DNA from: Nanobdellota archaeon
GTDB taxonomy: Archaea; Nanobdellota; Nanobdellia; Nanobdellales; Nanobdellaceae
NCBI GenBank assembly: GCA_042850255.1
Contig: AP031373.1
Span: 480,001 to 512,000, forward strand
Direction of reading: 5' to 3'
DNA length: 32,000 bases
In this document: positions 3,298-23,271 of the stretch, piece after piece
How the letters are laid out: the number at the start of each line of letters is the position of its first letter
Numbering within the stretch: the first letter of the stretch is position 1
Position numbers and translations under genes: made by a program
The notes under the pieces: generated by a model
Databases searched by the model: none
Told to the model about the DNA's origin: nothing
The model's input: only the letters and a program-made list of their open reading frames with translations

Positions 3298-3417
3298 ATA
3301 TTTACTTGTTTACTGATATTTATAGATAAAAGTGAATAAGGAAACTACATATTAAGGGTTCTAAGAATTTTGTTTATAAATTTTCAATATATAAGTTTTT
3401 TTAAAATCATAAATATT

Positions 3418-5130: not shown

Positions 5131-5132
5131 AG

Positions 5133-5876
5133 ATGATTAATTATAAAATAAAAGATCTAAAATATAATGAAAACTGGAGATATGATCCGGAGTTTAAGAT
5201 ATTTATAGATTCTAATATTTTAGTAGATGGATCACTTAATAATTTTAGGTTTAAATCTTATAAAAAATTATTTGATGATCTATTTATAAAATCTAAGTTT
5301 ATTATCCTTGAAACTAATGTCATTAATATAGTCGAAGCAATTAAGATTCTTATGGACAAAGCAAAAGTTCATTTTTTTATAGATGAATTTGCTCATAATG
5401 TAAATGAACTAAAACATTTACCAGAAAAATATAGAAATTTTATTAATAAGTATTATAATGATATAAGAGAATCATATGGAAAACTATATATTAATAAGCT
5501 CGAAAAGTTTTTAAATTCATACAGAATCTCTGTAATTGATAATGTCAAAATAATATATAAGGATGAAGGTATTTCAGAAAATTGTCAATTTTTGTTAGAA
5601 GACGATGGTTTACTAAATCTCTTTATAATATATGATAAAAGAATAGAATATAATGATTTTATAAGTTTGGCTACTGCTAATCAATTAAAAGACAATATAT
5701 TCATTACTACTGATAACAGATTAGCTGATTCAGTAAAAGATTATAGAATAAATCATTCGAATAATTTTCGATATGTATATTCGCTTGCAGATAGAGGACA
5801 TATAGAAGATCTATTAAAAGATTTAATGAATTGGGGAATAATCGAGAATTATAAAATAGAAGATATCAGACAGTAG
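5133..5876 (+). CDS. PIN-domain-like putative nuclease embedded in the type I R-M operon
   Basis: 247-aa ATG ORF starting 3 nt after hsdM. The acidic motifs appear in PIN/VapC order: KIFIDSNILV, FIILETNV..VE, NDFISLATANQL, NIFITTDNRLA. A large insertion lies between the second and third motifs. Confidence 0.5.
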   Translation: MINYKIKDLKYNENWRYDPEFKIFIDSNILVDGSLNNFRFKSYKKLFDDLFIKSKFIILETNVINIVEAIKILMDKAKVHFFIDEFAHNVNELKHLPEKYRNFINKYYNDIRESYGKLYINKLEKFLNSYRISVIDNVKIIYKDEGISENCQFLLEDDGLLNLFIIYDKRIEYNDFISLATANQLKDNIFITTDNRLADSVKDYRINHSNNFRYVYSLADRGHIEDLLKDLMNWGIIENYKIEDIRQ

Positions 5877-5877
5877 C

Positions 5878-7212
5878 ATGTTAAATAAATTAGTTTTCTA
5901 TAAGGAGATAAAATTTAAAGATATTCCAGAATTAGGAATAAAAATTCCTGAAGATTGGAGAATTAAAAGATTAGTAGAAATATGCTCAAAAATAAGAGCA
6001 GGAGGCACACCTAAAAGAGAAGTTTCAGAATATTGGGGAGGAAGTATACCATTTGTAAAAATAGAAGACATAACTAAAAGTGGCAAATATCTTTATAAAA
6101 CGGAAGAGACAATTACAGAGTTAGGTATAAAAAATTCGAATGCTTGGATGATACCAAAAAATTCTCTACTTTTAGCTATGTATGGTAGCTTAGGAGAAAT
6201 TTCTATAAATAAAATTGAAGTAGCTACGAATCAAGCTATTTTGGGGATTATTCCAAATCCAAATAAAATATATCTAGAATATTTATATTATTGGTACCTA
6301 TTTTTTAAGCCTAATTGGAAAAAATATGCTAAACCTACAACTCAAGCCAATTTGACAGCCGAAATCGTCAAAAATTCTTTGATTCCTCTTCCTCCTCTCG
6401 AAGAACAAAAAGCTATTGCAGAAATATTAAGTACTATAGATAAAACAATCGAAAAGATTCAAGAGAATATCGAAAAAACTGAAAAATTAAAAAAAAGTTT
6501 AATGCAAAAATTGTTAACGGGAGAAATAATAGTTAAAGAAGAAAATGGAAAATATATATTTTATAAGGAGATAAAATTTAAAGATATTCCAGAATTAGGA
6601 ATAAAAATTCCTGAAGATTGGAGAATTAAAAGATTAGATGATAATGAAATTTCTTTAAATATAAGATCAGGAACTACGCCATCTAAAAGAAAAGAATCAT
6701 ATTGGAATGGAAATATTTTATTTGTTACAATTAGCGATATGACTAAAACAAATAAATACCTTATAGATACAGAAAATAAGATAACAGAACTAGCTCTGAA
6801 AGAATCTAAAGTACTTTTAATTCCAGAAGAAAATATACTTCTATCTATGTATGGAACTATAGGGAAAGTAGTTATTAATAAGAAACCAGTAGCTATAAGT
6901 CAGAATATTGCTGGTATTATAGTAAATAAGCAATATGTGGATATTAATTACTTATTCTATGCTTTAAAATATTATTCATATCAATTTGACCGAGCTAAGA
7001 TCATTACTTTAAAACATTTAGATATAAAAATCGTCAAAAATTCTTTGATTCCTCTTCCTCCTCTCGAAGAACAAAAAGCTATTGCAGAAATATTAAGTAC
7101 TATAGATAAAAAAATAGAACTATTAAAACAGAAAAAAGAATTATTAGAAATAATTAAAAAATGGTTTATGAAAAAATTGTTAGCAGGAGAAATAAGAGCA
7201 AAATATGGATGA
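5878..7212 (+). CDS. hsdS: type I restriction-modification system, specificity subunit HsdS (two target recognition domains)
   Basis: 444 aa in two tandem halves of about 221 aa. Each half has a TRD followed by the conserved IPLPPLEEQKAIAEILSTIDK helix typical of HsdS. Confidence 0.9.
   Translation: MLNKLVFYKEIKFKDIPELGIKIPEDWRIKRLVEICSKIRAGGTPKREVSEYWGGSIPFVKIEDITKSGKYLYKTEETITELGIKNSNAWMIPKNSLLLAMYGSLGEISINKIEVATNQAILGIIPNPNKIYLEYLYYWYLFFKPNWKKYAKPTTQANLTAEIVKNSLIPLPPLEEQKAIAEILSTIDKTIEKIQENIEKTEKLKKSLMQKLLTGEIIVKEENGKYIFYKEIKFKDIPELGIKIPEDWRIKRLDDNEISLNIRSGTTPSKRKESYWNGNILFVTISDMTKTNKYLIDTENKITELALKESKVLLIPEENILLSMYGTIGKVVINKKPVAISQNIAGIIVNKQYVDINYLFYALKYYSYQFDRAKIITLKHLDIKIVKNSLIPLPPLEEQKAIAEILSTIDKKIELLKQKKELLEIIKKWFMKKLLAGEIRAKYG
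5899..5974. repeat. 76-bp perfect direct repeat, copy 1 (start of TRD1)
   Basis: Identical to 6562-6637: tataaggagataaaatttaaagatattccagaattaggaataaaaattcctgaagattggagaattaaaagattag. Confidence 0.9.
6362..6445. repeat. 84-bp perfect direct repeat, copy 1 (conserved region after TRD1)
   Basis: Identical to 7028-7111: aaatcgtcaaaaattctttgattcctcttcctcctctcgaagaacaaaaagctattgcagaaatattaagtactatagataaaa. Confidence 0.9.
6562..6637. repeat. 76-bp perfect direct repeat, copy 2 (start of TRD2)
   Basis: Identical to 5899-5974, at an offset of 663 nt. Confidence 0.9.
7028..7111. repeat. 84-bp perfect direct repeat, copy 2 (conserved region after TRD2)
   Basis: Identical to 6362-6445, at an offset of 666 nt. 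Confidence 0.9.
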
Positions 7213-8290
7213 TAAATATTATATATATGGAGAATATCTTTTATATGTTTTTATAATAATTATTATTTTTTCTTATATATTTCTAGTTATATTTAGAATA
7301 ATATATAATAGTATTTTTTATATTTTAAACCCTAATCTGTTAAATATAACCTTAAATATACTAAATAAGCAGATTTTAAATAGTTTAATTATATCTATAT
7401 TGTCGGTCTACATTTATCAGTTATATATCATTTTTAATAAAAAGTCTCATTTTTCAGATATATTTGAACAAAATAAAATATATATAAATATTGGTAATTT
7501 ATTTACGAACTTAGCAGGAATGGTTTTATATAACCCCTTTATTAATTTTGTATTTTTATTTTTGATATATTATTATGTATATATTATTTTTGGAAATCTT
7601 CCATCTTTACTATTTATAGTAGTTTTTTATGTTTCCCTTCTTTTAATAGAGTTTATTTTTAGAAATTTATTGTACTTAGATATTACAATAAAGTCTAATT
7701 ACAGTTCTCTCAAAGAATTTTATGATCCTTATATAAACAAAAAGATACAAGTAGATAATAAAGGTTATCTGATAGCCTCAGCTTTAATCATAAGTATAAA
7801 TACAGCATTTTTTTATATTATCCGATGTTTTTCGATATTTATTATAAGTATATTATTTGTGGTTTTGCTTATAATGGTCGTATTTACGATTTTGGTAGCT
7901 ATAAAAAAATTGAAAAAAGAGTATCTTATCTATTTTTATCGAGAACTATATCCTAATTTAAATATTTTTTATTCTTTGTTAAGGTTTTTCGAATATATGA
8001 TAATAATAGTTATTCCTTTTTTACTTTATTATATTTTTTACTATATGAATCTTTTAGAAATCATCAAAATTATAATTGCCTTTATTATAATAGAAGTTAT
8101 GTTGGATATAATAACTGTTTTTAACAAAATATTAAAAATTCCTTTCCTTATTAAATATTTAGAATTAGAAAACGGTATATTTTATGCCAATATCTTGCTT
8201 CTCGAAGAAACAAAAGATTATTTAATTATTTTAGATCAATCTAATAATATAATTAGAGTCTATAAAAATAAAATTATTGAAATGTATTAA
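7205..8290 (+). CDS. hypothetical polytopic membrane protein embedded between hsdS and hsdR
   Basis: 361-aa ATG ORF whose start overlaps the hsdS stop (ATGGATGA). It has roughly 7-9 hydrophobic helices by eye and a short soluble C-terminal tail, LELENGIFYANILLLEETKDYLIILDQSNNIIRVYKNKIIEMY. No family recognised. Confidence 0.55.
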   Translation: MDDKYYIYGEYLLYVFIIIIIFSYIFLVIFRIIYNSIFYILNPNLLNITLNILNKQILNSLIISILSVYIYQLYIIFNKKSHFSDIFEQNKIYINIGNLFTNLAGMVLYNPFINFVFLFLIYYYVYIIFGNLPSLLFIVVFYVSLLLIEFIFRNLLYLDITIKSNYSSLKEFYDPYINKKIQVDNKGYLIASALIISINTAFFYIIRCFSIFIISILFVVLLIMVVFTILVAIKKLKKEYLIYFYRELYPNLNIFYSLLRFFEYMIIIVIPFLLYYIFYYMNLLEIIKIIIAFIIIEVMLDIITVFNKILKIPFLIKYLELENGIFYANILLLEETKDYLIILDQSNNIIRVYKNKIIEMY

Positions 8291-8326
8291 GTTATATAAA
8301 AGGTATTACAAATATATTAAATTATA

Positions 8327-11300
8327 ATGAATGAGCAACAAATCAAACAAAAAGTATTGGAAATTTTAAAATCAAATAATTGGAATTATATTGAAAGTAA
8401 AAATTTAAACAAATCATCAAAAGAGATTATTATAGAAGATATCTTCTTCAAAAAAATAAGAGAATTAAATAAAAATTTAGAATTAACTGATAAAGATATA
8501 GAAAAAGTTTTAGATAAATTATTAAATTCTGATGGTAAAGAAGTTTTAAGATATTTAAAGAAGGGAATTTCAATTAAATTAGAAAAAACAAATAATATAG
8601 AAACAATAAAGATAATAGATTATGAAAATATAGAAAATAATTCCTTTATTGTATCTGATGAAGTTAGATTTAAACAAATGGAAAATGAGATTTATGTAGA
8701 TTTAGTACTGTTTATTAACGGAATTCCTTTTATTATAATAGAAAATGAAAGTATGAAAGATGGAGAGTGGAAAAAAGGATTTCAACAAATAGTTAATTAT
8801 ATTAAACTTATACCAAAATTAGCAAATATAAGTCAAATAGGTTTAGTTATTGCAGATAATATATATTATTTTCCAATTGATGAAGAATTTATTAAAAAGG
8901 AAGAATCTAAATTAGAAGGAAGATTGCAAATATGGAAACCTGATGAAAATAGAAAAACTAACGATTGGAATACAATATTAAATTCAACTATTGGCTATTT
9001 ATTAAAACCTGAAATATTATTAAAAATAATAAAATATTATACTTTTTATCAAATAAAAGAGAATAGAAAAATATTGCCAAGATATTTTCAATTTTATACT
9101 GTTGAAAAATTATATAATAAATTTAAAGAAAGATTGGAAGGAAAATCTAGTGATAAAAGTTGGGTTGTATGGCATTATCAAGGATCAGGAAAATCTATGA
9201 CAATGGCTTATTTATCTAAAATAATATTAAATAAATTGGGTAAAGAATTTTCAATAGATCCTGTAATATTAATTGTGGTTGATAGATTAGAATTACAAAA
9301 TCAAATGGATGAACAGACTTTTAAAAATGTAGATTTAGATTTAGAGCATCCTGAAAAAGTTATCGATAATTTAAGAGAATTATTAATTGATATATTAAGA
9401 AAAGGAGAAAAACCACAATCTGGTGTATATATTGTAACTATACAAAAGTTTGGGAAAAGTAGTTCAGAAGAATCTGAAGATGAAGATTTAAATACAGACG
9501 ATTTATATAATTCAGTAAAAGGTGTTGGATTAACAGAAGAAGATATAAAAAGAATTTCGGGAAGAAAAGATATATTTATATTAATAGATGAGGCGCATAG
9601 GAGTCATTATGGAAAATTGGGAAAAATACTAAATTATATATTTGGATCTGCATTTTATGTTGCATTTACAGGTACTCCATTATTAGGTAAAGATAAAAAT
9701 ACATTTAGATTATTTGGAGAACCTATAGATATATATTTTATTGATGAAGCTGAAGAAGATAAATATATAGTTCCTATCTTTTATAGAGCAGAATATGATA
9801 TAATAAATTTGACTTTAGATATACTTAAAAAAGAAAAAGAAATAAAAGATAATGAAGAATATAATAAAGTTATTACTGAAGTATTAGAAGGATATTTACC
9901 AGAAAATTTAGAAAATATAGAAAAAATTTATAATTTAAATGAATCTTTAAAGAGAAAATTATTAGATTTAAGAAGATTAGTATTTGAGAATGATTATAGA
10001 ATTAAAGAAATTAGTAAGAAAATATCTGAACATTTTAAAAATGAAGTAGAGCCTTTAGGTTTTAAAGCAATGGTAATAGTAGCTACTAGAAAAGCTGCAG
10101 TTAGGTATGTAAAAATATTAAAAGAATTGTTGGGAGAAGATACTGTAGAAGCAATTATAACATATCAAGGAACAGAAGATGATACTGAAATTTTGAATTA
10201 TAGGGAATATTTAATAAAAAAATATGGAAAAGGATTGAAAGATTATAATGAATTAAATGATATAATAAAAAATAAGTTTAAGGAAGATGAAAATCCAAAA
10301 ATATTGGTAGTAGTAAATAAATTAATAACAGGTTTTGATGAGAAGAAATTACAAACAATATATATAGATAGGTTTATGGTTAGTCATACATTATTACAAG
10401 CTATAGGGAGATGTGATAGACCATATCCTGAAAAGAATAAAGTTAATGGCTTAATAGTAGATTTTGTTGGATTAATAGATAGATTAAAAAAAGCCATTGA
10501 TTTATATTTTGGAACTAAAGATATAAAATTGGATCAATCAATATTATTGGAATATAAAGATATAAAAAGCGAATTAAAGAAAATTATAGATAAAATAAAT
10601 GAAAAAATATTTAATATTGTAGATATGGACCTAAATAAGGAGTTATCTAATTATAAGAAATATTTAGAGAATAATAATGTAGAATCTATAAAAGATTTAA
10701 TAGACGATATAATATTAGATATACTAGAAAATGGTTTAGATGGAAAATTTAGGGAAATTTTTAGAGAATTTGAAAGTACTTTATTTTCTCCAGTAACAGA
10801 TTTAAATATAAGGGAAGAATTTTATATATATTATGAGTTTTTATTATTAATTAAAAGTCAGATAGATTCTTTAAAAGAAAATGAAATAAAAACAGTTGAT
10901 GATATTAAAAGAATAGCAAATATTAAGGCTGAAGAAATTTTAGATAAATTATATAAAAATACAACGATACAACAATTTTTAACTTTTGAAAAGAAAGAAC
11001 TATCAGAAATAGTATCTGATGTAAAATCTGGAAAATATATAAATATTATAGATTTAAATAAGTTATCAAATAACGAAAAAGAGAGTAAAAAGGTATTGGC
11101 AAAATCTGTAAAGGCAATGATAATACTAAAAGAAAATGAACCGGCTTTTGTAGATATAATAGACAAAATAATAAAGAAAATTCAAGATTATAATAGAAAG
11201 AAGTATAATTCTTATATGATATTAAGTGAATTAATACCAGAAATTAAAAAGATACAAGAAATAGAAGATATAAAAAATAAATATAATTTTGATAGTGATG

Positions 11301-11581
11301 GATTGTTTATCTATAATTTATTATCAGAATCAATTAAAGATTTAAATGAAGAAGAGTTAATAAACATATCTAAGAAAATAAGAGAAAAGATATTGGAAGC
11401 TGAAGAACATAAAGAAAGTAATGATTTTTGTAGAATATTAAGTAGGAATATACAATTTGGGGTTGTTATATCATTATTAAATAAAAATATTGATGAAAAT
11501 ATAAAAGAAAATATAGTAAAAAGGATAAAAGAGCATTTTGCTAATAAATATAAGGAATGTCAGGACGAACTATTAAGATAA
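8327..11581 (+). CDS. hsdR: type I restriction enzyme, restriction/helicase subunit HsdR
   Basis: 1084 aa. The N-terminal PD-(D/E)xK-like nuclease region is VDLVLFINGIPFIIIENESMK. SF2 helicase motif I is GSGKS, motif II is LIDEAHRSH (DEAH), and the later motif is QAIGRCDR. Confidence 0.92.
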   Translation: MNEQQIKQKVLEILKSNNWNYIESKNLNKSSKEIIIEDIFFKKIRELNKNLELTDKDIEKVLDKLLNSDGKEVLRYLKKGISIKLEKTNNIETIKIIDYENIENNSFIVSDEVRFKQMENEIYVDLVLFINGIPFIIIENESMKDGEWKKGFQQIVNYIKLIPKLANISQIGLVIADNIYYFPIDEEFIKKEESKLEGRLQIWKPDENRKTNDWNTILNSTIGYLLKPEILLKIIKYYTFYQIKENRKILPRYFQFYTVEKLYNKFKERLEGKSSDKSWVVWHYQGSGKSMTMAYLSKIILNKLGKEFSIDPVILIVVDRLELQNQMDEQTFKNVDLDLEHPEKVIDNLRELLIDILRKGEKPQSGVYIVTIQKFGKSSSEESEDEDLNTDDLYNSVKGVGLTEEDIKRISGRKDIFILIDEAHRSHYGKLGKILNYIFGSAFYVAFTGTPLLGKDKNTFRLFGEPIDIYFIDEAEEDKYIVPIFYRAEYDIINLTLDILKKEKEIKDNEEYNKVITEVLEGYLPENLENIEKIYNLNESLKRKLLDLRRLVFENDYRIKEISKKISEHFKNEVEPLGFKAMVIVATRKAAVRYVKILKELLGEDTVEAIITYQGTEDDTEILNYREYLIKKYGKGLKDYNELNDIIKNKFKEDENPKILVVVNKLITGFDEKKLQTIYIDRFMVSHTLLQAIGRCDRPYPEKNKVNGLIVDFVGLIDRLKKAIDLYFGTKDIKLDQSILLEYKDIKSELKKIIDKINEKIFNIVDMDLNKELSNYKKYLENNNVESIKDLIDDIILDILENGLDGKFREIFREFESTLFSPVTDLNIREEFYIYYEFLLLIKSQIDSLKENEIKTVDDIKRIANIKAEEILDKLYKNTTIQQFLTFEKKELSEIVSDVKSGKYINIIDLNKLSNNEKESKKVLAKSVKAMIILKENEPAFVDIIDKIIKKIQDYNRKKYNSYMILSELIPEIKKIQEIEDIKNKYNFDSDGLFIYNLLSESIKDLNEEELINISKKIREKILEAEEHKESNDFCRILSRNIQFGVVISLLNKNIDENIKENIVKRIKEHFANKYKECQDELLR

Positions 11582-12237
11582 ATAATTTGGAATTTAATAT
11601 AAAGGTAGAAAAAACAAATTCTAAATATACATACATAAAATTTAATGGTAATAATATAATAATAAAAACGAAGTTTAATAATGTTGATAATATAATACCA
11701 ATTATAGAAAAAAATTTGGAAAAATTAGAATTATATTCTTTACCAAAAGAGATATTCGAAGAATTACCAATATTTGGAATTCCATATAAATTAATTATAA
11801 AAAATATAAAAAGAAAATATTTAATATTTCATAAGAAAAGATTAATTATATTAAATCCAAATTATAAGGAAGATTTTATTAATTATCTATCGAAATTATT
11901 AATTAAATATTGTAGTAAAGAGATTAAGAAGTTTTTAAAATTATTAGACATAAATATAAATCCAGAGATAGAAATAAAAATTATGAAATCTAAATATGCT
12001 TATGTAAAGGATAATAAAATATATTTGAGTATAATAAATGTATTTTTTCCAAAATATTTGATAGATTATATTTTATTTCATGAAGTTATACATTTTAAGA
12101 TTAAAAATCATGGCTATCAATTTAAAAAGTTATTAGAAATGCTTTATCCAAATTATAAAGAATTAGAAAAAGAATTAAAAAAGTGGACAATTGCAATATT
12201 CTATAACAAAAATATAAATAATTTATTAAATATCTAA
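11557..12237 (+). CDS. DUF45/YgjP-like zinc metallohydrolase (HExxH), a family frequently linked to type I R-M loci
   Basis: 226-aa ATG ORF overlapping the hsdR 3' end by 25 nt. The C-terminal ILFHEVIHFKIKNHGYQFKKLLEMLYPNYKE matches the DUF45 HExxH...H..F signature. Confidence 0.7.
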   Translation: MSGRTIKINNLEFNIKVEKTNSKYTYIKFNGNNIIIKTKFNNVDNIIPIIEKNLEKLELYSLPKEIFEELPIFGIPYKLIIKNIKRKYLIFHKKRLIILNPNYKEDFINYLSKLLIKYCSKEIKKFLKLLDININPEIEIKIMKSKYAYVKDNKIYLSIINVFFPKYLIDYILFHEVIHFKIKNHGYQFKKLLEMLYPNYKELEKELKKWTIAIFYNKNINNLLNI

Positions 12238-13498: not shown

Positions 13499-14095
13499 AT
13501 GGAAAGTAAACAAGATAGATATAAATGGACAACTAGAGAAATAGTATTTTTGACAATTGCAATAATATTTGCTATTCTTACTGTTGTCTTTGGTTTTCTT
13601 TATGTGAATAATAATAATGTTAATAAAAATACAATTTCGATAAATCAATATAATGCATTATTATCTAACTATACTAGTTTACAAGAACAGTATAATGCTA
13701 TATTACAAGGAATGCAGGGTGGTTTGGGATCATCAACTCTTATACAACCTGGTTATATGGATGCACTTACAACACTTTATGTACCATATAATTGTATAGC
13801 AACTGCTACCCTGAGTGTAAATGCTAGTGGTTTTGTTTATGTATATATTATGGGTTTATATAATACTATATATAACCAGGTAAATAACTATTCAATATCT
13901 CTTGGATTGCCACCTCCTTATAATATTAGTTATTATTATCAATTTAATGGAACCTACATAAATCAGATTATAACTTTAGAACCAAATTACGCTGGTGGAG
14001 ATTATTATTTTGTATTTGTAGATAATGAAGGAACATCGCCAGTTTATGCAATAGCGGATATTTATTTGGACAATCTTTCATGTTATATAAGTTGA
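13499..14095 (+). CDS. hypothetical membrane-anchored, Asn/Tyr-rich secreted-type protein
   Basis: 198-aa ATG ORF. TM helix IVFLTIAIIFAILTVVFGFLYV is followed by an N/Y/S-rich domain with several N-x-S/T sequons. It shares a PYNC motif with ORF 974-1432. Confidence 0.5.
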   Translation: MESKQDRYKWTTREIVFLTIAIIFAILTVVFGFLYVNNNNVNKNTISINQYNALLSNYTSLQEQYNAILQGMQGGLGSSTLIQPGYMDALTTLYVPYNCIATATLSVNASGFVYVYIMGLYNTIYNQVNNYSISLGLPPPYNISYYYQFNGTYINQIITLEPNYAGGDYYFVFVDNEGTSPVYAIADIYLDNLSCYIS

Positions 14096-16591: not shown

Positions 16592-17332
16592 ATGAATATA
16601 TTTTCTAAGATATTTAAAAGAAGTAATGAAAATAACAAAGAATTTGTACCTGTCCAAACTCAAAATCCTATCCAAAATCCTGTTCCCAACTATGATTCAG
16701 AAATAAAAAGTATTGCAAATTCAATAGAAGGATTAGCTAAATCTGTAAGGGATTTAGAAAGCAAAGTTTCAGATATTTCTAATAAATTTTCAGATTTAAA
16801 TACAAAAGTAGAAAATAATCAAAATGAAATAAATAATATAAAAAATAATATGGAAAAAATATTTTCAATATATGAGTTATTAATAAAAAACTATAATCCA
16901 TTTGTTGAAGATGAAAATATAGAAAATAAAGAGATAAATATAGAAAATAATAAAATAATAGAAGAAGAAAAAGAAGAAAATGTTTTACCTTTAAGTAATT
17001 TAGATAATAATCCTACAGTTGCTTCTATTGTTATAGGATGGTTATCATATTTAATGAGAAAATCTAATTTAGAAGAAGTGGACAAATCTTTAGATTATTA
17101 TGAAGAAATAAATTGGATAACAGAAGATGTTAAAATAAAATTAAAAGAATATTTGAAAGGATTGGAAAATATAGAAGGAGAAAATAAAAAATTGACACCT
17201 ATGGATCATATAGTAAGTTTATACATAATTTATAAATTATCTCAATTAAGAGGAGAAGGAAATATTGAAAGATTAAAGGATTTATATAAAGAGCTAATAC
17301 AAAAAGGATATATATCTCCAGTTAAACAATGA
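16592..17332 (+). CDS. arlD: archaellum protein ArlC/D/E-like (FlaD/E domain)
   Basis: 246 aa. An N-terminal coiled coil is followed by the C-terminal segment NPTVASIVIGWLSYLMRKSNLEEVDKSLDYYEEINWITEDV, which matches the FlaD/E W..FL....YYe..gWIs pattern. It lies upstream of arlH and arlI. Confidence 0.55.
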   Translation: MNIFSKIFKRSNENNKEFVPVQTQNPIQNPVPNYDSEIKSIANSIEGLAKSVRDLESKVSDISNKFSDLNTKVENNQNEINNIKNNMEKIFSIYELLIKNYNPFVEDENIENKEINIENNKIIEEEKEENVLPLSNLDNNPTVASIVIGWLSYLMRKSNLEEVDKSLDYYEEINWITEDVKIKLKEYLKGLENIEGENKKLTPMDHIVSLYIIYKLSQLRGEGNIERLKDLYKELIQKGYISPVKQ

Positions 17333-17715
17333 TAAGAGAATTAATATTTTTGATAATATTATTTGTAGCAGGATTTTTTGTTTTACAAGCATTTTATAGT
17401 TTTTATAATTCTGCAGGAAAAATAATTGCTAGACAAGTTGAAAATTTAACTAATAATGTTAACTATGTTTCTCAAGTTAATTATGTAATAAATGAACAAA
17501 ATTTCAATGGATATTCAATATTATACTTAATACAAAATCAAATAAAAAATGAATGTATAAAAAATATAGATATAAATAATAATCCTGTAAACTTTTCATA
17601 TAAAATATTAAATAAATATACTATAGAATTAAATGTAAGTACAAATGTATATGCAGGAAATAATATGACTGTAACATTTTGTAATGGCCAATCTTATAAT
17701 TATATGATATCATAA
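17329..17715 (+). CDS. archaellum stator-like protein ArlF/ArlG-like
   Basis: 128 aa with an N-terminal TM helix and a beta-rich domain. The position between the arlD-like gene and arlH matches the canonical operon order. Confidence 0.4.
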   Translation: MIRELIFLIILFVAGFFVLQAFYSFYNSAGKIIARQVENLTNNVNYVSQVNYVINEQNFNGYSILYLIQNQIKNECIKNIDINNNPVNFSYKILNKYTIELNVSTNVYAGNNMTVTFCNGQSYNYMIS

Positions 17716-17716
17716 A

Positions 17717-18421
17717 ATGACAGAATATATAGAAATATTTATTGATAGAGATGAATTTTCCGATAGAATTGGAGGAGGAATACCAAAAGGTAGTTTATTT
17801 ATAATTGAGGGAGATGATGGAACTGGAAAAAGTATAGTTTGCCAAAGAATATTATATGGAGCTTTAGTTAATAATCATAAAGTATCATATATATCTACAG
17901 AATTATCTATTATAGATTTTATTAAACAAATGGATTCTTTAGGTTATGATATAAAAGATTTTATATTAAATGGAAAATTATTATTTATTCCAACATTGAA
18001 TGTATTTGGAAAAATAAAAGAAAAAGAAAATTTAATATTTGAATTAACAAAAGAAAAAGCTAAGAAAATATTTGAAAACGAATTAATTATTATAGATTCT
18101 TTATCATATCCATTAATAAATGGATTGACAAAAATGGATTCTATAAAATTAATAGAATTTTTAAATAAGGTAAAAAATTTAGGAAAGACAATAATTGTTA
18201 CATATAATCCTTCTGAAATAAATGAATTTTTTGTTAAAAATGTAAGAAGAGTTTCTGATATTTACTTTAATTTAAGGTATAGTTCGTTGGAAGAGGGGTC
18301 TATGCTAAAAGTAATAGAAGTAAAAAGGTTTAGATATCCTAAAGGAATATATAATAATTTAATACCATTTAGAGTAGAGCCAAATATAGGGCTAATAATT
18401 GAAATATCTTCATATGTATAA
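17717..18421 (+). CDS. arlH: archaellum protein ArlH (FlaH), a RecA/KaiC-like ATP-binding protein
   Basis: 234 aa. GGGIPKGSLFIIEGDDGTGKS (Walker A) has the KaiC/RecA-like layout. The TAATG junction overlaps the arlI start. Confidence 0.75.
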   Translation: MTEYIEIFIDRDEFSDRIGGGIPKGSLFIIEGDDGTGKSIVCQRILYGALVNNHKVSYISTELSIIDFIKQMDSLGYDIKDFILNGKLLFIPTLNVFGKIKEKENLIFELTKEKAKKIFENELIIIDSLSYPLINGLTKMDSIKLIEFLNKVKNLGKTIIVTYNPSEINEFFVKNVRRVSDIYFNLRYSSLEEGSMLKVIEVKRFRYPKGIYNNLIPFRVEPNIGLIIEISSYV

Positions 18422-21400
18422 TGCCTGAGGAACAGATACAGAAATTAGAAAATAAGCAAGAATATGTTATAAAGAGAGATAAGGTTAATGTAATAAATAA
18501 TGATATAACTAAAAATTTTGATGAAGCATTAGCGAAATATTCTCATTTAAGATCTTATATAAATGATATTTCTAGAAAAATTGGATTACCAGAATGGATG
18601 ACATCTTTAGACTTTTCATTAAAATCTAGGGAAGAATTTAACATATTATATCCTGTAGGAGATCCTATATTTATACATATATATAAATTATCTAGCGGAG
18701 AATCTTATTATAATGTAATAGAACCTGAGTTAACAAAAGATGAAAAAGAAAAATTAGAAAAAATACAAACAAAAATTGTTAAGTATGCTGTTGAGAATAT
18801 AAATTTAAATAATATAGAAGAAGTTAAAAAAACTGTAATAGATTTATTTAATAGAGTTGTAGAAGTTGGAAGAAGATCTTTATTTTCTGATAAAGTATTT
18901 ATTAAAAATAAGGAAGAATATGATAGATTATTGTATTTCTTAATTAGAGAAAGATTTGGTTATGGATTTTTAGAACCATTTTTAAGAGATCCATATTTAG
19001 AAGATGTACATATATTGGGAATGGGTCCTATTTATGTTGTTCATAAAATATTTGGTATGTTACAGACTAATAGAAAATTTGAAGATGAAAAAGATTTAAA
19101 TAGATATATAATAAGGTATTCTGAAATTGTAGATAGACCTGTTTCTGAAACAAGACCAATTGTAGATGCAATATTACCAGACGGTTCAAGAGTTAATTTT
19201 ATTTATGGAAAAGATATATCTCTACATGGATCTTCATTTACAATTAGAAAATTCTCTGCTAAACCTTTAAGTATTACACAATTAATTTCCTTTGGTACTA
19301 TTTCACCAGAAGAAGCTGCTTATTTATGGTTAGCAATTGAAAATGGAATGAATATTGTTGTATCTGGAGAAACTGCTTCAGGTAAGACTACATTATTAAA
19401 TGCTTTAACTACATTTATTAGACCAGATGCTAAAGTATATTCTGTAGAAGATACTCCTGAATTAAATATACCCCATCCAATTTGGCAAAGATTGGTTACT
19501 AGAGAAGTTGGAAAAGCTGCAGATGTAAGTATGTATGATTTACTTAGGGCAGCATTAAGGTCTAGACCTAATTATATATTAATAGGTGAGATAAGAGGAA
19601 AAGAAGGATATGTAGCTTTCCAGGCGATGCAGTGTGTAAAAGATGCAAAAGTTGTTTTAGGTGATGAAGTAAAAAATATAAAAGATTTATTTGAAGAATA
19701 TAAAAATAAATATGGAGTTAAAATAATTGATGGGAAAGAAGTTGTTGAAATAAAAGATAACTTTGAAATACCATCTTATAATGGTAAAGAAATAACAAAA
19801 GCAAAAGTAAAAGCAATTTTAAAAATGCCAAAAAGTAAGTTAATAAGAGTTATTTTAGAGGATGGAAATGTATTTGAAGTAACGCCAAATCATAAGTTTA
19901 TAACAAATTATGGTGAATTATCTGCTGAAGAATTATATGAAGCATATAAGAAAAATTTAAATATATATGTAAAAAGAGTGAATAATTTTGAAAAGAAAGA
20001 AGAAAATGGTATAAAATTTAAAGAAGAAAAGTTAGAATTATCAAATCCATGGTTCTGGTATGGATTAGGAAGATTATTAGGAGATGATTCTATATTTATT
20101 TATTATAAAAATGATAAAATTAAAGGATTTATATGGCAAGCAAAAACAACTCATAAAGATGAGGCAAAATGGATGGAAATAATGGACAAAGTATTACCAA
20201 ATAATTCTAAAAGCAAAATAAAAACAGAAGGAAACACTTATATAAAAAGAATATATTTAAAATGGTGGTTTGTAGATTGGTTAATAAAAAATGGATTTAT
20301 AGAAATACCTGAAAAGAAAAATGAATATGCATCTGCAGTAATTAAACATGTTGGAAATATACCTAAAGAAGCATTAGGACCATTTTTAGCGGGTATGTTT
20401 GATTCTGACGGTTCTATATTATGGGTAAATAAGAAAACAATGTTATTTAGATTTGCATTAGATTTAAATAGAAAAAATAGAGAAGATTATCCATTAGCTA
20501 TAGAACAAATAAAATTATTTAAGAAATTGAAAGGAAAGTTACCAAAAATATTAGAAGTAGTCTTTAGATATTCCTCAGAATATGAAGATTTAGTAAAAAG
20601 ATATAAAGAAGAAATAGAAAAGAATGGAGTAAAAGTAAAGATGAAAAGATATGATAAAAGAAGGGGAATATATGGATATGTAATATTTTCAACTAAAAGG
20701 GAAAAATTAAGATGGTTTGCAGAAAATGTAGTTCCATATATGTTAAGAGAAGATAAAAAAGAAAATATATTAAGAAAAATAAATGTAGAAATTAAAAGAA
20801 AAGATAAATTAAATATAAATGATTATGAAGTGAAATATATTGAGGTAAAAGATAAAGATGTAGATAAAATGATAGAAAAATTATGGTTAAGTGGATATGA
20901 TTTCTCCTTAGATTCGATATTTAATAGAAAGAGAATAATTTATTTAGATAACCGTGAATATGTAAAAGTAATTAAGGTTGAAGAAGCTGGAGAGGATTAT
21001 ACTTATGATATATTATTAGAGGGGGGAGGAAAATATTATGTAGGATTTAATGGAGGTGGTGCAATTGCAATAGAAGATACAGGACATCCTGTAATGACTA
21101 CGTTTCACTCAGGTAATATTGCTTCATTAATAGAAAGAATGACTGGAGAACCAATAAATATTCCAATAACATTTATAGATAACTTAAATATAGCGGTATT
21201 TACATCTACTGTAACTGTAAAAGGTAGAATGGAAAGAAGAATAACAAGTATATATGAAATAGAAAGATATATTGCAGAATTAAAGAAAGTAGCAGTTAGA
21301 AGAGTATTTTCTTGGGATAGTGTTAGAGATAAACATATGTTTTCTGGAAAATATAATAGTTATATATTAGAAAGAAAAATTGCTCCTTTAATGAAAATAG

Positions 21401-21552
21401 ATGATAAAAGGAAAATGTATGAAATATTGGATTATAGAGCTAGAATATTAAAAAGGATGGTTGATGAACAAATATTTGATTTCTTCGAAGTTTGGGAAAT
21501 ATTAAAGAACTTTTATATAAATGGACCATCTGCTTTACCATTTTCAGTATAA
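18421..21552 (+). CDS. arlI: archaellum assembly/motor ATPase ArlI (FlaI), interrupted by an intein
   Basis: 1043-aa ORF. Walker A is GETASGKTTLLNAL and Walker B is RPNYILIGEIRG. The conserved motif FQAM-x-TGH is split as AFQAMQ|C...IED|TGHPVMTTFHSGN. The extein total of 561 aa is a normal FlaI size. Confidence 0.9.
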   Translation: MPEEQIQKLENKQEYVIKRDKVNVINNDITKNFDEALAKYSHLRSYINDISRKIGLPEWMTSLDFSLKSREEFNILYPVGDPIFIHIYKLSSGESYYNVIEPELTKDEKEKLEKIQTKIVKYAVENINLNNIEEVKKTVIDLFNRVVEVGRRSLFSDKVFIKNKEEYDRLLYFLIRERFGYGFLEPFLRDPYLEDVHILGMGPIYVVHKIFGMLQTNRKFEDEKDLNRYIIRYSEIVDRPVSETRPIVDAILPDGSRVNFIYGKDISLHGSSFTIRKFSAKPLSITQLISFGTISPEEAAYLWLAIENGMNIVVSGETASGKTTLLNALTTFIRPDAKVYSVEDTPELNIPHPIWQRLVTREVGKAADVSMYDLLRAALRSRPNYILIGEIRGKEGYVAFQAMQCVKDAKVVLGDEVKNIKDLFEEYKNKYGVKIIDGKEVVEIKDNFEIPSYNGKEITKAKVKAILKMPKSKLIRVILEDGNVFEVTPNHKFITNYGELSAEELYEAYKKNLNIYVKRVNNFEKKEENGIKFKEEKLELSNPWFWYGLGRLLGDDSIFIYYKNDKIKGFIWQAKTTHKDEAKWMEIMDKVLPNNSKSKIKTEGNTYIKRIYLKWWFVDWLIKNGFIEIPEKKNEYASAVIKHVGNIPKEALGPFLAGMFDSDGSILWVNKKTMLFRFALDLNRKNREDYPLAIEQIKLFKKLKGKLPKILEVVFRYSSEYEDLVKRYKEEIEKNGVKVKMKRYDKRRGIYGYVIFSTKREKLRWFAENVVPYMLREDKKENILRKINVEIKRKDKLNINDYEVKYIEVKDKDVDKMIEKLWLSGYDFSLDSIFNRKRIIYLDNREYVKVIKVEEAGEDYTYDILLEGGGKYYVGFNGGGAIAIEDTGHPVMTTFHSGNIASLIERMTGEPINIPITFIDNLNIAVFTSTVTVKGRMERRITSIYEIERYIAELKKVAVRRVFSWDSVRDKHMFSGKYNSYILERKIAPLMKIDDKRKMYEILDYRARILKRMVDEQIFDFFEVWEILKNFYINGPSALPFSV
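19633..21078 (+). mobile_element. 482-aa intein with a LAGLIDADG homing-endonuclease domain inside arlI
   Basis: Cys1 (CVKDAKVVLGD). Block B is EVTPNHKF. The two LAGLIDADG motifs are YGLGRLLGDDS and FLAGMFDSDGS. Block F-like is YTYDILLEGGGKYYV. It ends ...AIAIED with Thr at +1. Boundaries are set by the split FlaI QAM/TGH motif. Confidence 0.85.
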
Positions 21553-21632: not shown

Positions 21633-22904
21633 ATGATGGATAAAGATATTATTAGAGTTCTTTTATGGAAAAAACCTAGTATAGAGATATTGGGAGATGA
21701 AAAAGTAAATAGAATAGAAAAATTTAAGCATTATATAGGTTATGAAATATCTGGATATGTACATATAGGTACTGGAGTAGTTTCTGGATATAAAATAATT
21801 GATATATCAAATTTTGGAGAGGCTACAGTATTCTTAGCAGATTGGCATTCTATGATAAATAATAAATTGGGTGGAGATATTGAAATAATAAGGAAGATTG
21901 CTAAAGGATATTTTTCTGAAACTATAAAACAAAGTATAAAAGCATTGGGAGGAGATCCTGATAAAGTAAAATTTGTATTAGCTTCAGATATATATAATAA
22001 TGATTATTGGGGGGAAGTAATTAAAATAGGAAAAAATACTACATTAAACAGGGTTTTAAGGTCTATTACAATAATGGGAAGAAAGGGGGAAGAATCTATA
22101 CCATCTGCATGGTTAATATATCCATTAATGCAGGCTGCTGATATAATATTCCAAAAAGTTAATATTGCACATGCTGGAATTGATCAAAGAAAAGCTCATG
22201 TAATTGCAATAGAATATTCAGATAAAATAGATTATCCATTAATCGCTATGCATCATCAATTAATTACAAACTTACAATTATCATTTGAAGTATTTCAAAA
22301 ATTGAAAGAAGGTAATAAAAGAGAGGCAAAAGAAGAATTATCTGAATTAAAAATGTCGAAATCAATACCAGGATCTGCAATATTTGTTCATGACAATCCT
22401 AACGATATTATGGAAAAAATAAATAAGGCATTTTGTCCTGCAAAAGAATTAGATTTTAATCCTATATGGGAAATAATAGAATATTTAATATTTAGAGGAC
22501 AAGAAAATTATGGATTAATAAAAATATTATTAGAAAAAGGATATAAAATTGAAGGATTAGAAAAATTAGATTATAATATTTATGAAGAACTAAAAAATAA
22601 TAATAAAATAGATTGGGAAAAAATATATGAATTTGCTAATAAAGAATCAAATGATCTATATAAGTATTCATTTGAGGAAATAGAATTTGAAATTATCAAT
22701 GGAAAAACTGGAGAAAAGAAAGTTTATAATAAATTATGGGATTTAAGAAAAGATTGGATAGAAGGGAAAATACATCCTTTAGATTTAAAGAATGCGGTAG
22801 GTAAATGGTTAGCAAATAAATTAGAACCTGTTTATAAATACTTTAATGAAGGTCCTGGTAAAAAATATAAAGAAGAAATAGATAGTGTTAGAATAACTAG
22901 GTAG
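21633..22904 (+). CDS. tyrS: tyrosine--tRNA ligase with lineage-specific insertions
   Basis: 423 aa. The class I HIGH-like motif is YEISGYVHIGTG; LADWHSMINNKLGG; KMSKS is followed by AIFVHDNPNDIMEKINKAFCP; the C-terminal HPLDLKNAVGKWLANKLEPV matches the archaeal TyrRS pattern. Confidence 0.7.
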   Translation: MMDKDIIRVLLWKKPSIEILGDEKVNRIEKFKHYIGYEISGYVHIGTGVVSGYKIIDISNFGEATVFLADWHSMINNKLGGDIEIIRKIAKGYFSETIKQSIKALGGDPDKVKFVLASDIYNNDYWGEVIKIGKNTTLNRVLRSITIMGRKGEESIPSAWLIYPLMQAADIIFQKVNIAHAGIDQRKAHVIAIEYSDKIDYPLIAMHHQLITNLQLSFEVFQKLKEGNKREAKEELSELKMSKSIPGSAIFVHDNPNDIMEKINKAFCPAKELDFNPIWEIIEYLIFRGQENYGLIKILLEKGYKIEGLEKLDYNIYEELKNNNKIDWEKIYEFANKESNDLYKYSFEEIEFEIINGKTGEKKVYNKLWDLRKDWIEGKIHPLDLKNAVGKWLANKLEPVYKYFNEGPGKKYKEEIDSVRITR

Positions 22905-22938: not shown

Positions 22939-23271
22939 ATGAAGATTGACAAAATGGTTAACAATATAACACTCTTCTTATATTTATATAGATTACATGC
23001 TAGAAAATTATTTAATAAAATGAAAAATCAAGAAGCTAAAGCTTTGTTATTAATATCATATAAAGAAGATGATATAGTAGATTTATTAAACCAAATATTA
23101 CAAGAAAAAGAATTATTTAGAGATCTAGTAGAAAAAAATGAATTAGATCATGCTTACAAAGTATATAAAGATATAGAATATAAGTATAAATTAGCGGAAA
23201 ATATATTGACAAATAGGATAGAAGAACTAGTAAAAATTAGAGCATTTGATATTATGAAGTCAGGTCATTAA
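22939..23271 (+). CDS. hypothetical helical protein
   Basis: 110-aa ATG ORF. No family recognised. Its 3' end overlaps the convergent phosphohexomutase gene by 20 nt. Confidence 0.4.
   Translation: MKIDKMVNNITLFLYLYRLHARKLFNKMKNQEAKALLLISYKEDDIVDLLNQILQEKELFRDLVEKNELDHAYKVYKDIEYKYKLAENILTNRIEELVKIRAFDIMKSGH

Follow-up and report, generated by a model that had tools for sequence, protein, structure and literature searches.

A site-specific family of predicted inteins ending in aspartate in the His box of the archaellum ATPase FlaI

Introduction

Can an intein that ends in Glu-Asp, rather than in the canonical His-Asn, be spliced out of the archaellum ATPase that it interrupts, or does such an end mark a decayed insertion? 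This question is raised by the flaI (arlI) gene in a 32,000-nucleotide stretch of DNA from a Nanobdellota archaeon (here called the window, to which all positions refer), in which a preliminary description had placed a LAGLIDADG-type intein with an atypical C terminus. Reviews treat ends other than His-Asn as a known polymorphism of inteins and not as a criterion for exclusion (PMC4031507, PMC2807308). We examined the junctions of this insert, its relatives at the same site, its divergence relative to the host gene, and the splicing chemistry that its residues would allow.

Results

The insert has the anatomy of a class 1-type intein in FlaI

The interrupted open reading frame matches the NCBIfam model NF058587 ("archaellum flagellar ATPase motor FlaI") in two stretches with 647.9 bits (cutoff, 550) and also matches Pfam T2SSE. 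This equivalog-level match, together with the FlaC/D/E-like and FlaH genes immediately upstream, identifies the host as FlaI/ArlI. The upstream archaellum gene order (16592 to 18421) recurs at the loci L034, L001, and L002. Scanned with Rfam and for tRNAs, the window yielded two tRNAs only, neither of them relevant to the intein. The features of the locus are as follows.

16592 to 17332, forward strand: FlaC/D/E-like gene upstream of flaI (Pfam Arch_fla_DE, FlaC_arch)
17329 to 17715, forward strand: 128-amino-acid open reading frame upstream of flaI, no family match
17717 to 18421, forward strand: FlaH (KaiC-like ATPase) gene upstream of flaI (Pfam KaiC ATPase)
18421 to 21552, forward strand: flaI/arlI precursor (N-extein, intein, and C-extein), 1043 codons plus stop
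18421 to 19632, forward strand: N-extein, 404 codons, ending in ...GEIRGKEGYVAFQAMQ
19633 to 21078, forward strand: intein, 482 codons, Cys1 to Asp482
19633 to 19947, forward strand: N-terminal splicing region, intein residues 1 to 105 (TIGR01445 at residues 3 to 91)
19882 to 19893, forward strand: block B TPNH (T84-P-N-H87), intein residues 84 to 87
20038 to 20790, forward strand: homing-endonuclease domain, approximate limits, intein residues ~136 to 386
20050 to 20097, forward strand: LAGLIDADG motif 1 region, WFWYGLGRLLGDDSIF, intein residues 140 to 155
20374 to 20421, forward strand: LAGLIDADG motif 2 region, LGPFLAGMFDSDGSIL, intein residues 248 to 263
20830 to 20997, forward strand: C-terminal accessory module, VKYIEV...WLSGYDFS...IIYLDNREYVKVIKVEE, intein residues 400 to 455
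20998 to 21078, forward strand: blocks F and G, YTYD(F:4)ILLEGGGKYYVGFNGGGAIAIE-D482, F:4 being D459
21079 to 21552, forward strand: C-extein, 157 codons plus stop, opening at Thr+1 of the His box, TGHPVMTTFHSG

The insert splits the His-box motif of FlaI between Gln404 and Thr (AFQAMQ/C...IED/TGHP, where slashes mark the junctions). Cys1 is encoded by TGT (19633 to 19635), and the last intein codon, GAT for Asp482 (21076 to 21078), is followed by ACA for Thr+1 (21079 to 21081). Once the intein is removed, a 561-amino-acid FlaI remains, and its alignment with Sulfolobus acidocaldarius FlaI (4II7/4IHQ; "vafqamqtgh," E = 6e-134) shows no gap where the exteins meet. Read without the intein, flaI runs ...GCTTTCCAGGCGATGCAG/ACAGGACATCCTGTAATG... 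across the insertion point. In the N-extein, the P-loop GETASGKTT is intact and the SSFTIRKF site is uninterrupted.

Within the insert, the NCBIfam N-terminal intein model (intein_Nterm, TIGR01445) is matched at 39.5 bits (cutoff, 24.5). LAGLIDADG motif 1 reads GLGRLLGDDS (residues 144 to 153), and motif 2 reads LAGMFDSDGS (residues 252 to 261), with the acidic residue of its "SDG" intact; the Pfam LAGLIDADG_3 match to residues 251 to 268 is weak, at 17.8 bits under a cutoff of 22.5. In the block F and G numbering of the KlbA comparison in PMC2807308, the window intein carries Lys and not His at F:13, Tyr-Tyr at F:14-15, Glu at G:6, and Asp at G:7; it ends in Glu481-Asp482, and both the canonical penultimate His and the terminal Asn are absent. 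The intein is Lys-rich and contains a single Cys.

Judged by these features and by the profile matches below, the insert is no chance resemblance but a real class 1-type intein, in which a LAGLIDADG endonuclease sequence is embedded. The preliminary description had its coordinates exactly right, and its account of a 482-codon insert with Cys1, block B TPNH, two LAGLIDADG motifs, and a Glu-Asp terminus is borne out; both motifs retain their acidic residues.

A family profile aligns with solved inteins through the splicing and endonuclease domains

We compared a profile of the same-site family (described below) with the PDB. The matches were the TvoVMA mini-intein 4O1S (1.9e-14), TliVMA 7QSS (5e-14), 2LQM (3e-10), and PI-PfuI 1DQ3 (5e-6), and the profile also matches the PhoRadA intein. 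TliVMA 7QSS aligned over its full length, endonuclease included; the endonuclease domains of both 7QSS and 1DQ3 are covered, and the motif 1 region is profile-aligned with the LAGLIDADG helix of 7QSS. Of 18 family members, 15 are recognized by TIGR01445 at E <= 0.01 and 14 by Pfam Intein_splicing. The C-terminal intein model TIGR01443 gave no match in the window intein or in any of the 18 family members, as expected from the atypical C-terminal end. An AlphaFold (AF2) model of the intein was poor (mean pLDDT of 53.6, from a 5-row alignment). In this low-confidence model, the endonuclease region is predicted as two alpha-beta-beta-alpha-beta-beta-alpha units, and Foldseek ranks PI-PfuI 1DQ3 and TliVMA 7QSS first, at TM-scores below 0.2, which lends the fold assignment weak support.

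A terminal Asp is conserved among inteins at the same site

The family was gathered by scanning contigs from genomes and metagenomes for sequence patterns and by an exhaustive HMMER search. One of the two patterns used in the metagenome scan, DTGH[PG]V, was biased to Asp; this bias was countered by collecting loci through the N-junction AFQAMQC, by reading their C-junctions with a regular expression that did not require Asp, and by the unbiased profile search.

A terminal Asp is present in 29 of the 30 distinct in-group alleles at the QAMQ/TGH site, encoded by GAT or GAC and thus a single transition from the Asn codons. The penultimate residue in these 30 alleles is E, Y, M, N, F, Q, or S, and in none is it His. 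All 26 complete alleles tabulated from genome and metagenome loci have Thr at +1. In an 18-sequence family alignment, little or no variation is seen at C1, the block B T..H, the block F Y-D, the Y-Y pair, the terminal D, and Thr+1; C1, Y-D, Y-Y, and the terminal D are invariant. Across the family, F:13 and the penultimate position (G:6) both lack His. An absolute requirement for Asp is contradicted by allele P0012, which ends in Ser-Asn. Decay is also seen among the alleles: in the degenerate P0013, Tyr has replaced C1 and TGH has become TGA.

The hosts comprise DPANN archaea, Methanosalsum, and Caldarchaeales, with GC contents of 22 to 66%, and include high-GC metagenome-assembled genomes (MAGs) labeled Calditenuis/Caldarchaeales as well as the cultured strain Methanosalsum natronophilum AME2, whose allele (L009/P0014) ends in ...YVYD/TGHP. 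The window endonuclease domain is homologous along its length to those of four alleles in which both motifs are conserved (L006, L009, L011, and L020), and its motif 1 aligns with GRLxGDDS of the Methanosalsum and Woesearchaeota alleles. Alleles of 238 amino acids have lost the endonuclease and kept the accessory module (residues 400 to 455 of the window intein), and the mini-intein alleles L001 and L003 (158 to 162 amino acids) are without an endonuclease domain. Allele P0002 is a mini-intein of 162 amino acids.

At a second site, F/TIRKF, paralogous ATPases carry related Asp-ended inteins. Canonical ends also occur at the His box. A FlaI intein with Ser1 and a His-Asn end (P0039) lies at the same QAMQ/TGHP point, gives a weak full-length profile match (E = 2e-4), and served as the outgroup to the Asp-ended clade in a neighbor-joining tree; in a paralogue, a canonical Ser1...His-Asn intein (P0028) lies at the equivalent His-box point, GMA/SGHP. 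Because the more distant same-site intein P0039 ends in His-Asn, we take the Asp end to be derived and then retained.

On this comparative evidence, the Glu-Asp end is a conserved hallmark of a family and not a defect. The end is Glu-Asp, as first described, and is not peculiar to this organism. We place the window intein in a new family among the Asp-terminated inteins, a class that is known but rare. Literature searches on inteins in FlaI, ArlI, and the archaellum found no description of the Asp-ended family, which is apparently undescribed. The only intein that Podar et al. (2013) mention for Nst1 is a ribonucleotide reductase (RNR) intein, and a passage of Novikova et al. (2016) that gives no termini counts 21 inteins among the "VirB11" proteins (COG0630) of archaea.

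The FlaI intein differs from KlbA and VMA inteins in its insertion site

The preliminary description had named KlbA as an intein whose insertion site and termini should be compared with those in FlaI. The class 2 KlbA intein (Mja KlbA, MJ0781; PDB 2JMZ/2JNQ) also sits at the His box of an archaeal VirB11/FlaI-family (COG0630) ATPase, a paralogue of FlaI, and the HINT fold of 2JMZ is matched by the FlaI-intein family profile at E = 1.4e-4. The 2JMZ chain reads MNTGHDG/ALAYDEP...AVS(N to A)/(C to S)SGTLH. Its insertion site follows TGHDG, five residues downstream of QAMQ/TGH, and the two inteins are therefore not allelic. KlbA has Ala1, and so no N-terminal nucleophile, with Cys+1 and a Ser-Asn end, whereas the window intein has Cys1, Thr+1, and a Glu-Asp end. 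These differences in insertion site and in residues 1 and +1 rule out a KlbA-type identity.

By profile, the archaeal VMA inteins (the TvoVMA mini-intein 4O1S and TliVMA 7QSS, the latter with an endonuclease) are the closest solved relatives. Their host is the V-ATPase A subunit, and their insertion site, the P-loop, is unlike that of the FlaI intein; their termini are canonical.

The intein is less diverged than its host gene

We compared the window locus with its syntenic relative L034. The intein has a dS of 0.40 (bootstrap, 0.31 to 0.51), against 0.94 for the exteins (0.76 to 1.17) and 0.87 to 1.24 for seven neighboring genes. Because the intein is far less diverged at dS than the exteins and the neighboring genes, these values indicate that it was transferred horizontally, recently, and by homing. 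The corresponding dN/dS values are 0.19 for the intein, 0.15 for its N-terminal splicing region, 0.23 for the endonuclease, and ~0.2 for the exteins; purifying selection acts on both intein and exteins. Motif 2 reads DSDG in the window and DSNG in L034. The endonuclease of the window allele may still be active, and the earlier suggestion of active homing, extended here to homing in the recent past, gains independent support from both the dS contrast and the endonuclease dN/dS.

The extein dN/dS and the intact archaellum neighborhood suggest that the host function of FlaI has been retained. This function would depend on splicing, because the insertion splits the His box.

Asp cyclization is the likely route of C-terminal cleavage

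Inteins whose last residue is Asp, Gln, or Glu are held to use the same pathway as those ending in Asn, with that residue cyclizing, "although other mechanisms are possible" (PMC4031507, PMC2807308). In our judgment, the window intein, a member of a site-specific x-Asp family, is likely to be spliced by the usual four-step pathway with Asp cyclization. In step 1, a thioester would form at Cys1, assisted by the block B Thr and His. In step 2, Thr+1 would attack this thioester to give a branched ester, assisted by the block F Asp. In step 3, the side chain of the terminal Asp, in place of Asn, would cyclize on its own backbone carbonyl and release the intein, with succinic anhydride as the product instead of succinimide. 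Finally, in step 4, an O-to-N acyl shift would restore AFQAMQ-TGHP and an active 561-amino-acid FlaI. From the conserved residues and from purifying selection on the host gene, we infer that the intein splices itself; Asp cyclization would accomplish step 3.

The named precedent is the Chy RIR1 intein of Carboxydothermus hydrogenoformans, which ends in Asp and for which the accepted view is a standard pathway with Asp replacing Asn in step 3 (PMC4031507, PMC2807308). Its host is a bacterial ribonucleotide reductase and its insertion site is another, and what the FlaI family has in common with it is the terminal Asp; at the FlaI site, the Asp is conserved in a clade of at least 30 sequences, without the penultimate or block F His. 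To our knowledge, Chy RIR1 is the only Asp-ended intein that has been studied biochemically. Amitai, Dassa, and Pietrokovski (J Biol Chem, 2004; cited in PMC4031507 and PMC2807308) are said to have found that the Chy RIR1 intein is still cleaved C-terminally when it ends in Ala; Asp cyclization is therefore unproven even for Chy RIR1.

In the Pyrococcus Pol II (PolC) inteins and the CIV RNR intein, Asn is likewise replaced by a cyclizable residue, but that residue is Gln, not Asp. Gln-ended inteins have been studied as cases of slow or variant step 3 chemistry (PMC4031507, PMC8229266). In PhoPol-II, the block F His has been proposed to activate the Gln (PMC8229266), and this His is absent from the FlaI intein.

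Alternatives to an Asp-cyclizing, splicing intein

The most credible alternative, to which we assign a minor share of the probability, is that the C-terminal bond is cleaved without Asp cyclization while the remaining pathway is standard. Cleavage might then occur by direct hydrolysis, by general-base catalysis through Asp/Glu carboxylates, or with help from the block F Tyr-Tyr. Both of the His residues that assist Asn cyclization (F:13 and G:6) are absent family-wide and the Y-Y pair is invariant, but the F:15 aromatics are conserved for structural reasons in ordinary inteins (PMC2807308), so a catalytic role for Y-Y does not follow. According to the reviews, alternative mechanisms have been put forward for inteins ending in Asp or Gln (PMC4031507, PMC2807308). 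Retention of Asp over its one-step neighbor Asn in 29 of 30 alleles is nevertheless most simply explained by a side chain that acts as the nucleophile. The reported cleavage of the Chy intein with a terminal Ala points in the other direction.

It is improbable, in our view, that the intein serves as a conditional switch, with slow or pH-, temperature-, or redox-dependent splicing that regulates archaellum assembly and rotation posttranslationally. The precursor would not be expected to be an active ATPase, given the catalytic position of the His box, and conditional splicing is on record for other archaeal inteins, e.g., RadA. The persistence of the endonuclease-free mini-inteins L001 and L003 is compatible with a retained host benefit, but an intein less diverged than its host fits selfish mobility, for which no host benefit is necessary. 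Sequence data are silent on rate or conditionality. Calditenuis/Caldarchaeales are hot-spring lineages and M. natronophilum is a mesophilic soda-lake methanogen; a host range from Calditenuis-labeled MAGs to cultured M. natronophilum, with GC of 0.22 to 0.66, opposes a purely thermal rationale, and the single Cys excludes an intra-intein disulfide switch. Nothing in the analysis speaks for slow splicing or for the earlier proposal that motility is conditional on temperature, redox, or pH.

A broader formulation is comparably doubtful: the Asp-ended inteins at QAMQ/TGH and F/TIRKF might constitute a distinct subclass that lacks the assisting His and gates both splicing and archaellum activity by pH or temperature. 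Gating would follow because the chemistry depends on the protonation state of Asp/Glu. If this were true, the subclass would resolve its branched intermediate via an Asp anhydride or by carboxylate-catalyzed hydrolysis.

There is little reason to regard the insert as a degenerate, nonsplicing remnant in a flaI pseudogene or in a gene with an inactive product, a possibility that the preliminary description had itself raised. The insert has neither a His-Asn end nor the block F His, the C-terminal intein model finds no match, and one family member, P0013, is clearly decayed; yet the window frame is open across 1043 codons with all other catalytic residues intact, purifying selection acts on exteins and intein alike (dN/dS of ~0.2 and 0.19), and the flaC/D/E-flaH-flaI neighborhood is kept. 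Decay would not leave 29 of 30 deeply diverged alleles with the same terminus.

Finally, a misplaced junction, with the true intein ending in His-Asn elsewhere, is refuted to near certainty by the gapless spliced alignment to FlaI structures, by the last 120 intein residues, which contain neither HN nor an Asn before Cys, Ser, or Thr, and by a boundary that is identical in all alleles, the 158- to 162-amino-acid mini-inteins included.

Discussion

Of the readings considered, a self-splicing intein with a cyclizing terminal Asp remains the one that we favor. For the biology of these archaea, the window presents a clean case in which the intein is far younger than the gene that carries it, and it offers evidence for ongoing homing among DPANN-like archaea. 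The C-terminal intein model recognizes no member of the family, so FlaI genes that carry such inteins are likely annotated without a recognized intein boundary.

The variation within the family, with its varied penultimate residues, one Asn end, mini-inteins of 158 to 162 amino acids, and members with and without an endonuclease, constitutes a comparative system. How the C-terminal junction is cleaved without Asn and without either assisting His is a question that can be approached by comparison within the family, and protein engineering might draw on the same family for small, His/Asn-free splicing modules.

An intein with a Glu-Asp terminus in the archaellum ATPase

In the window, the reading frame of the archaellum ATPase FlaI (ArlI) is interrupted within its His box (AFQAMQ/TGHP; slashes mark splice junctions).

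Archaellum genes in the window
16592-21552, + strand: archaellum gene block, with a FlaC/D/E-like gene, a 128-aa ORF, FlaH (KaiC-like ATPase), and a 1043-codon ORF
17329-17715: 128-aa ORF flanked by the FlaC/D/E-like gene and flaH; no family match
18421-21552, + strand: the 1043-codon flaI ORF; NCBIfam FlaI equivalog, 647.9 bits (cutoff, 550), with the match split into two stretches
19633-21078: 482-codon insert in flaI

The insert opens with the Cys codon TGT (19633-19635), preceded by ...GEIRGKEGYVAFQAMQ, and closes with GAA GAT (Glu-Asp; 21073-21078), after which ACA GGA CAT CCT (TGHP) resumes the host gene. Its removal leaves 561 residues that align with crystallised S. acidocaldarius FlaI without a gap across the junction ("vafqamqtgh"; E = 6e-134). 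The final 120 insert residues contain neither His-Asn nor an Asn preceding Cys, Ser, or Thr, so no shift of the junction would give a canonical end.

The N-terminal splicing region scores 39.5 bits against TIGR01445 (curated cutoff, 24.5), and a profile of 18 family members (see below) matches several solved inteins; the match to 7QSS spans the full length, including the endonuclease.

Matches of the family profile to solved inteins
TvoVMA (4O1S): E = 1.9e-14
TliVMA (7QSS): E = 5e-14
PhoRadA (2LQM): E = 3e-10
PI-PfuI (1DQ3): E = 5e-6
Mja KlbA (2JMZ): E = 1.4e-4

The catalytic landmarks Cys1 and Thr+1 are present, as are block B (T84-P-N-H87) and block F (Y-T-Y-D459). Both LAGLIDADG motifs (GLGRLLGDDS and LAGMFDSDGS) keep their acidic residues and align with their counterparts in distant alleles; Pfam LAGLIDADG_3 scores below cutoff. 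The AlphaFold model is poor (pLDDT, 53.6), and the best Foldseek matches to it, PI-PfuI and TliVMA, are weak evidence. The sequence identifies the insert as an intein carrying a LAGLIDADG endonuclease. The preliminary description had proposed such an intein, with a TPNH block B, two endonuclease motifs that look intact, an atypical Glu-Asp end, and a 561-aa FlaI restored by its removal; these observations were correct, and the core interpretation stands.

Gene neighborhood

The window is very low in GC (approximately 0.19 to 0.28) and reads as part of a small archaeal genome. Besides two tRNAs, it encodes prefoldin, ribosomal protein L3, a helicase-nuclease of the Hef type, and methyltransferases that modify tRNA. 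The 128-aa ORF holds its position in L034, a syntenic locus from our genome and metagenome scans (130 aa; 28% identity), and may be a divergent FlaF/FlaG-type component. It had no Pfam match, nor did the ORFs at 13499-14095, 22939-23271, and 974-1432. The gene following flaI is not flaJ; it encodes a class I (Trp/Tyr-type) aminoacyl-tRNA synthetase (21633-22904), which also lies downstream of flaI in L034 and in another scanned locus, L001. Because none of the window ORFs scanned was recognised as FlaJ-like, the archaellum genes of this organism appear to be dispersed. Elsewhere, the window carries a complete-looking type I restriction-modification system (3370-11581), in which two interspersed ORFs (5133-5876 and 7205-8290) had no Pfam match.

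Type I restriction-modification system and associated gene
3370-5130: HsdM (N6_Mtase)
5878-7212: HsdS (Methylase_S)
8327-11581: HsdR (HSDR_N/SWI2_SNF2/ResIII)
11557-12237: YgjP-like metallopeptidase

A family of Asp-ended inteins

Relatives were gathered by pattern scans of GTDB genomes and JGI metagenomes (L numbers) and by searching 1.84 billion representative proteins exhaustively with HMMER (P numbers). C-terminal junctions were relocated in each by a pattern that did not require Asp, and removal of duplicates left 30 in-group core sequences. The insertion point in FlaI is identical across all relatives. Hosts, whose GC content ranges from 0.22 to 0.66, comprise metagenome-assembled genomes (MAGs) labelled Woesearchaeota or Nanoarchaeia, unclassified archaeal MAGs, Calditenuis/Caldarchaeales, and Methanosalsum, among them cultured M. 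natronophilum AME2. Calditenuis/Caldarchaeales are hot-spring lineages, and M. natronophilum is a mesophilic soda-lake methanogen.

Asp, encoded by GAT or GAC, ends 29 of the 30 core sequences, all of which have Thr+1; none has a penultimate His.

Penultimate residues in the family
Glu: clade of the window's intein; also P0008, from the Methanosalsum-type clade
Tyr or Phe: Methanosalsum-type clade
Asn: two alleles of Nanoarchaeia type
Met: Calditenuis clade
Gln: P0013 only
Ser: the sole Asn-ended allele

The single in-group Asn end belongs to P0012 (Ser-Asn; ...GYQSN/TGHP), which falls inside the Tyr-Asp clade in a neighbor-joining tree without bootstrap, rooted on P0039, a more divergent intein from the same FlaI site that has Ser first and the canonical His-Asn last. 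P0013, with Tyr for Cys1, TGA for TGH, and a truncated or garbled N terminus, looks like a decayed copy. A single transition separates Asp from Asn codons. That Asp has been retained at such depth, despite the strongly AT-biased composition of the window's lineage, implies selection for Asp itself. The Glu-Asp end is a family trait and no accident.

Block F, numbered after the KlbA comparison in PMC2807308, also departs from the norm: every allele but L016, the only one with the block F His, has one of Lys, Ser, Thr, Gly, and Arg at F:13, and Tyr-Tyr at F:14-15 is invariant throughout the family. The NCBIfam C-terminal intein model recognised none of 18 family members, and the N-terminal model recognised 15.

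Inteins related in sequence, with Cys first and Phe-Asp or Tyr-Asp last, followed by Thr, occupy a second site (...TF/C...(F or Y)D/TIRKF) in paralogous ATPases of the archaeal secretion type (P0021, P0022, P0026, P0028, and P0043), some of which hold two or three inteins. The Asp end thus marks a lineage of inteins that has spread to at least two sites in the ATPase family. Standard and Asp-ended inteins also coexist in one polypeptide. P0028 carries a canonical Ser1...LHN/SGHP intein at the His-box site alongside its Asp-ended one. FlaI of a "Candidatus Woesearchaeota" MAG (L003:798-4313) has two inteins: its P-loop holds a large canonical one (GETASGK/SVAGYEK...IIVHN/TTTLNA), and its His-box site holds a mini-intein of 158 aa that ends in Asp (...PIPLED/TGHP). 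An identical intein occurs in L015.

Mobility and selection

The closest relative, P0005, is the L034 allele (L034:3001-6111), in a syntenic block of prefoldin, FlaC/D/E, FlaH, FlaI, class I aminoacyl-tRNA synthetase, and phosphoglucomutase-like genes.

Divergence between the window and L034 (Nei-Gojobori estimates)
Intein: dS 0.40 (bootstrap, 0.31-0.51); dN 0.075; amino acid identity 85%
FlaI exteins: dS 0.94 (0.76-1.17); dN 0.21; amino acid identity 72%
Seven neighboring genes: dS 0.87-1.24

Because the intein is less diverged than the conserved ATPase around it, at both synonymous and nonsynonymous sites, and its dS is also far below that of the neighboring genes, these values are best explained by its movement between the two lineages after their split, through homing or equivalent gene conversion, and point to recent horizontal transfer between two related lineages. 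With dN/dS of 0.15 in the N-terminal splicing region, 0.23 in the endonuclease, and 0.12 in the C-terminal module, every part is under purifying selection.

LAGLIDADG motif 2 reads DSNG in L034 versus DSDG in the window, and the endonuclease motifs are degenerate in L016, L018, and possibly the Calditenuis clade. Two 238-aa alleles (L002 and L005) have lost the endonuclease and kept the C-terminal module, and L001 and L003 are mini-inteins of 158 to 162 aa. This range of alleles shows the usual intein life cycle.

A module of approximately 55 residues (VKYIEV...WLSG...IIYLDNREY...; 20830-20997) lies between the endonuclease and block F; present in the 238-aa alleles and missing from the mini-inteins, it may be the remnant of a DNA-recognition region or an extension of the HINT fold.

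Proposed splicing mechanism

The data show the anatomy, the conserved catalytic residues, selection acting on both intein and host, and recent movement; we infer that the window's intein follows the standard class 1 pathway. Cys1 would form a thioester, transesterification onto Thr+1 would give a branched intermediate, cyclisation of the terminal residue would resolve it, with Asp482 in place of Asn and succinic anhydride in place of succinimide, and an O-to-N shift would restore the peptide bond. The same scheme is accepted for Asp-, Gln-, and Glu-ended inteins, with other mechanisms possible (PMC4031507; PMC2807308). With both assisting histidines missing, a third step by a route other than Asp cyclisation is a serious alternative, if an unlikely one. 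Asp cyclisation is the route we favor.

An unspliced precursor, its His box split by the insertion, should have no activity, and the archaellum should therefore require splicing to function. Regulation of motility through splicing that is slow or responds to temperature, pH, or redox, as the preliminary description suggested, is speculation; an internal disulfide switch is excluded, since the intein has a single Cys.

Relation to known inteins

Novikova et al. 2016 (PMC4760082) counted 21 inteins in archaeal COG0630 ("VirB11"/FlaI-type) ATPases. Best known are the class 2 KlbA inteins. KlbA (2JMZ chain, MNTGHDG/ALAYDEP...AVS-A/S-SGTLH) is inserted in the same His box, five residues downstream of QAMQ/TGH, and has Ala1, Cys+1, and a Ser-Asn end, whereas the window's intein has Cys1, Thr+1, and Glu-Asp; site and termini rule out KlbA as an allele. 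Asp at the C terminus is known as a rare polymorphism (Chy RIR1; Amitai et al. 2004, as cited in PMC4031507 and PMC2807308). The literature searched contained no description of an intein at FlaI QAMQ/TGH or of a family-wide Asp terminus, though this does not prove that none exists. The Asp-ended FlaI inteins are best classed as a new family within the known rare class of Asp-terminated inteins. Comparative sequence evidence that this family is functional and recently mobile is good, and its members offer a natural experimental series on the chemistry of Asp-mediated C-terminal cleavage.
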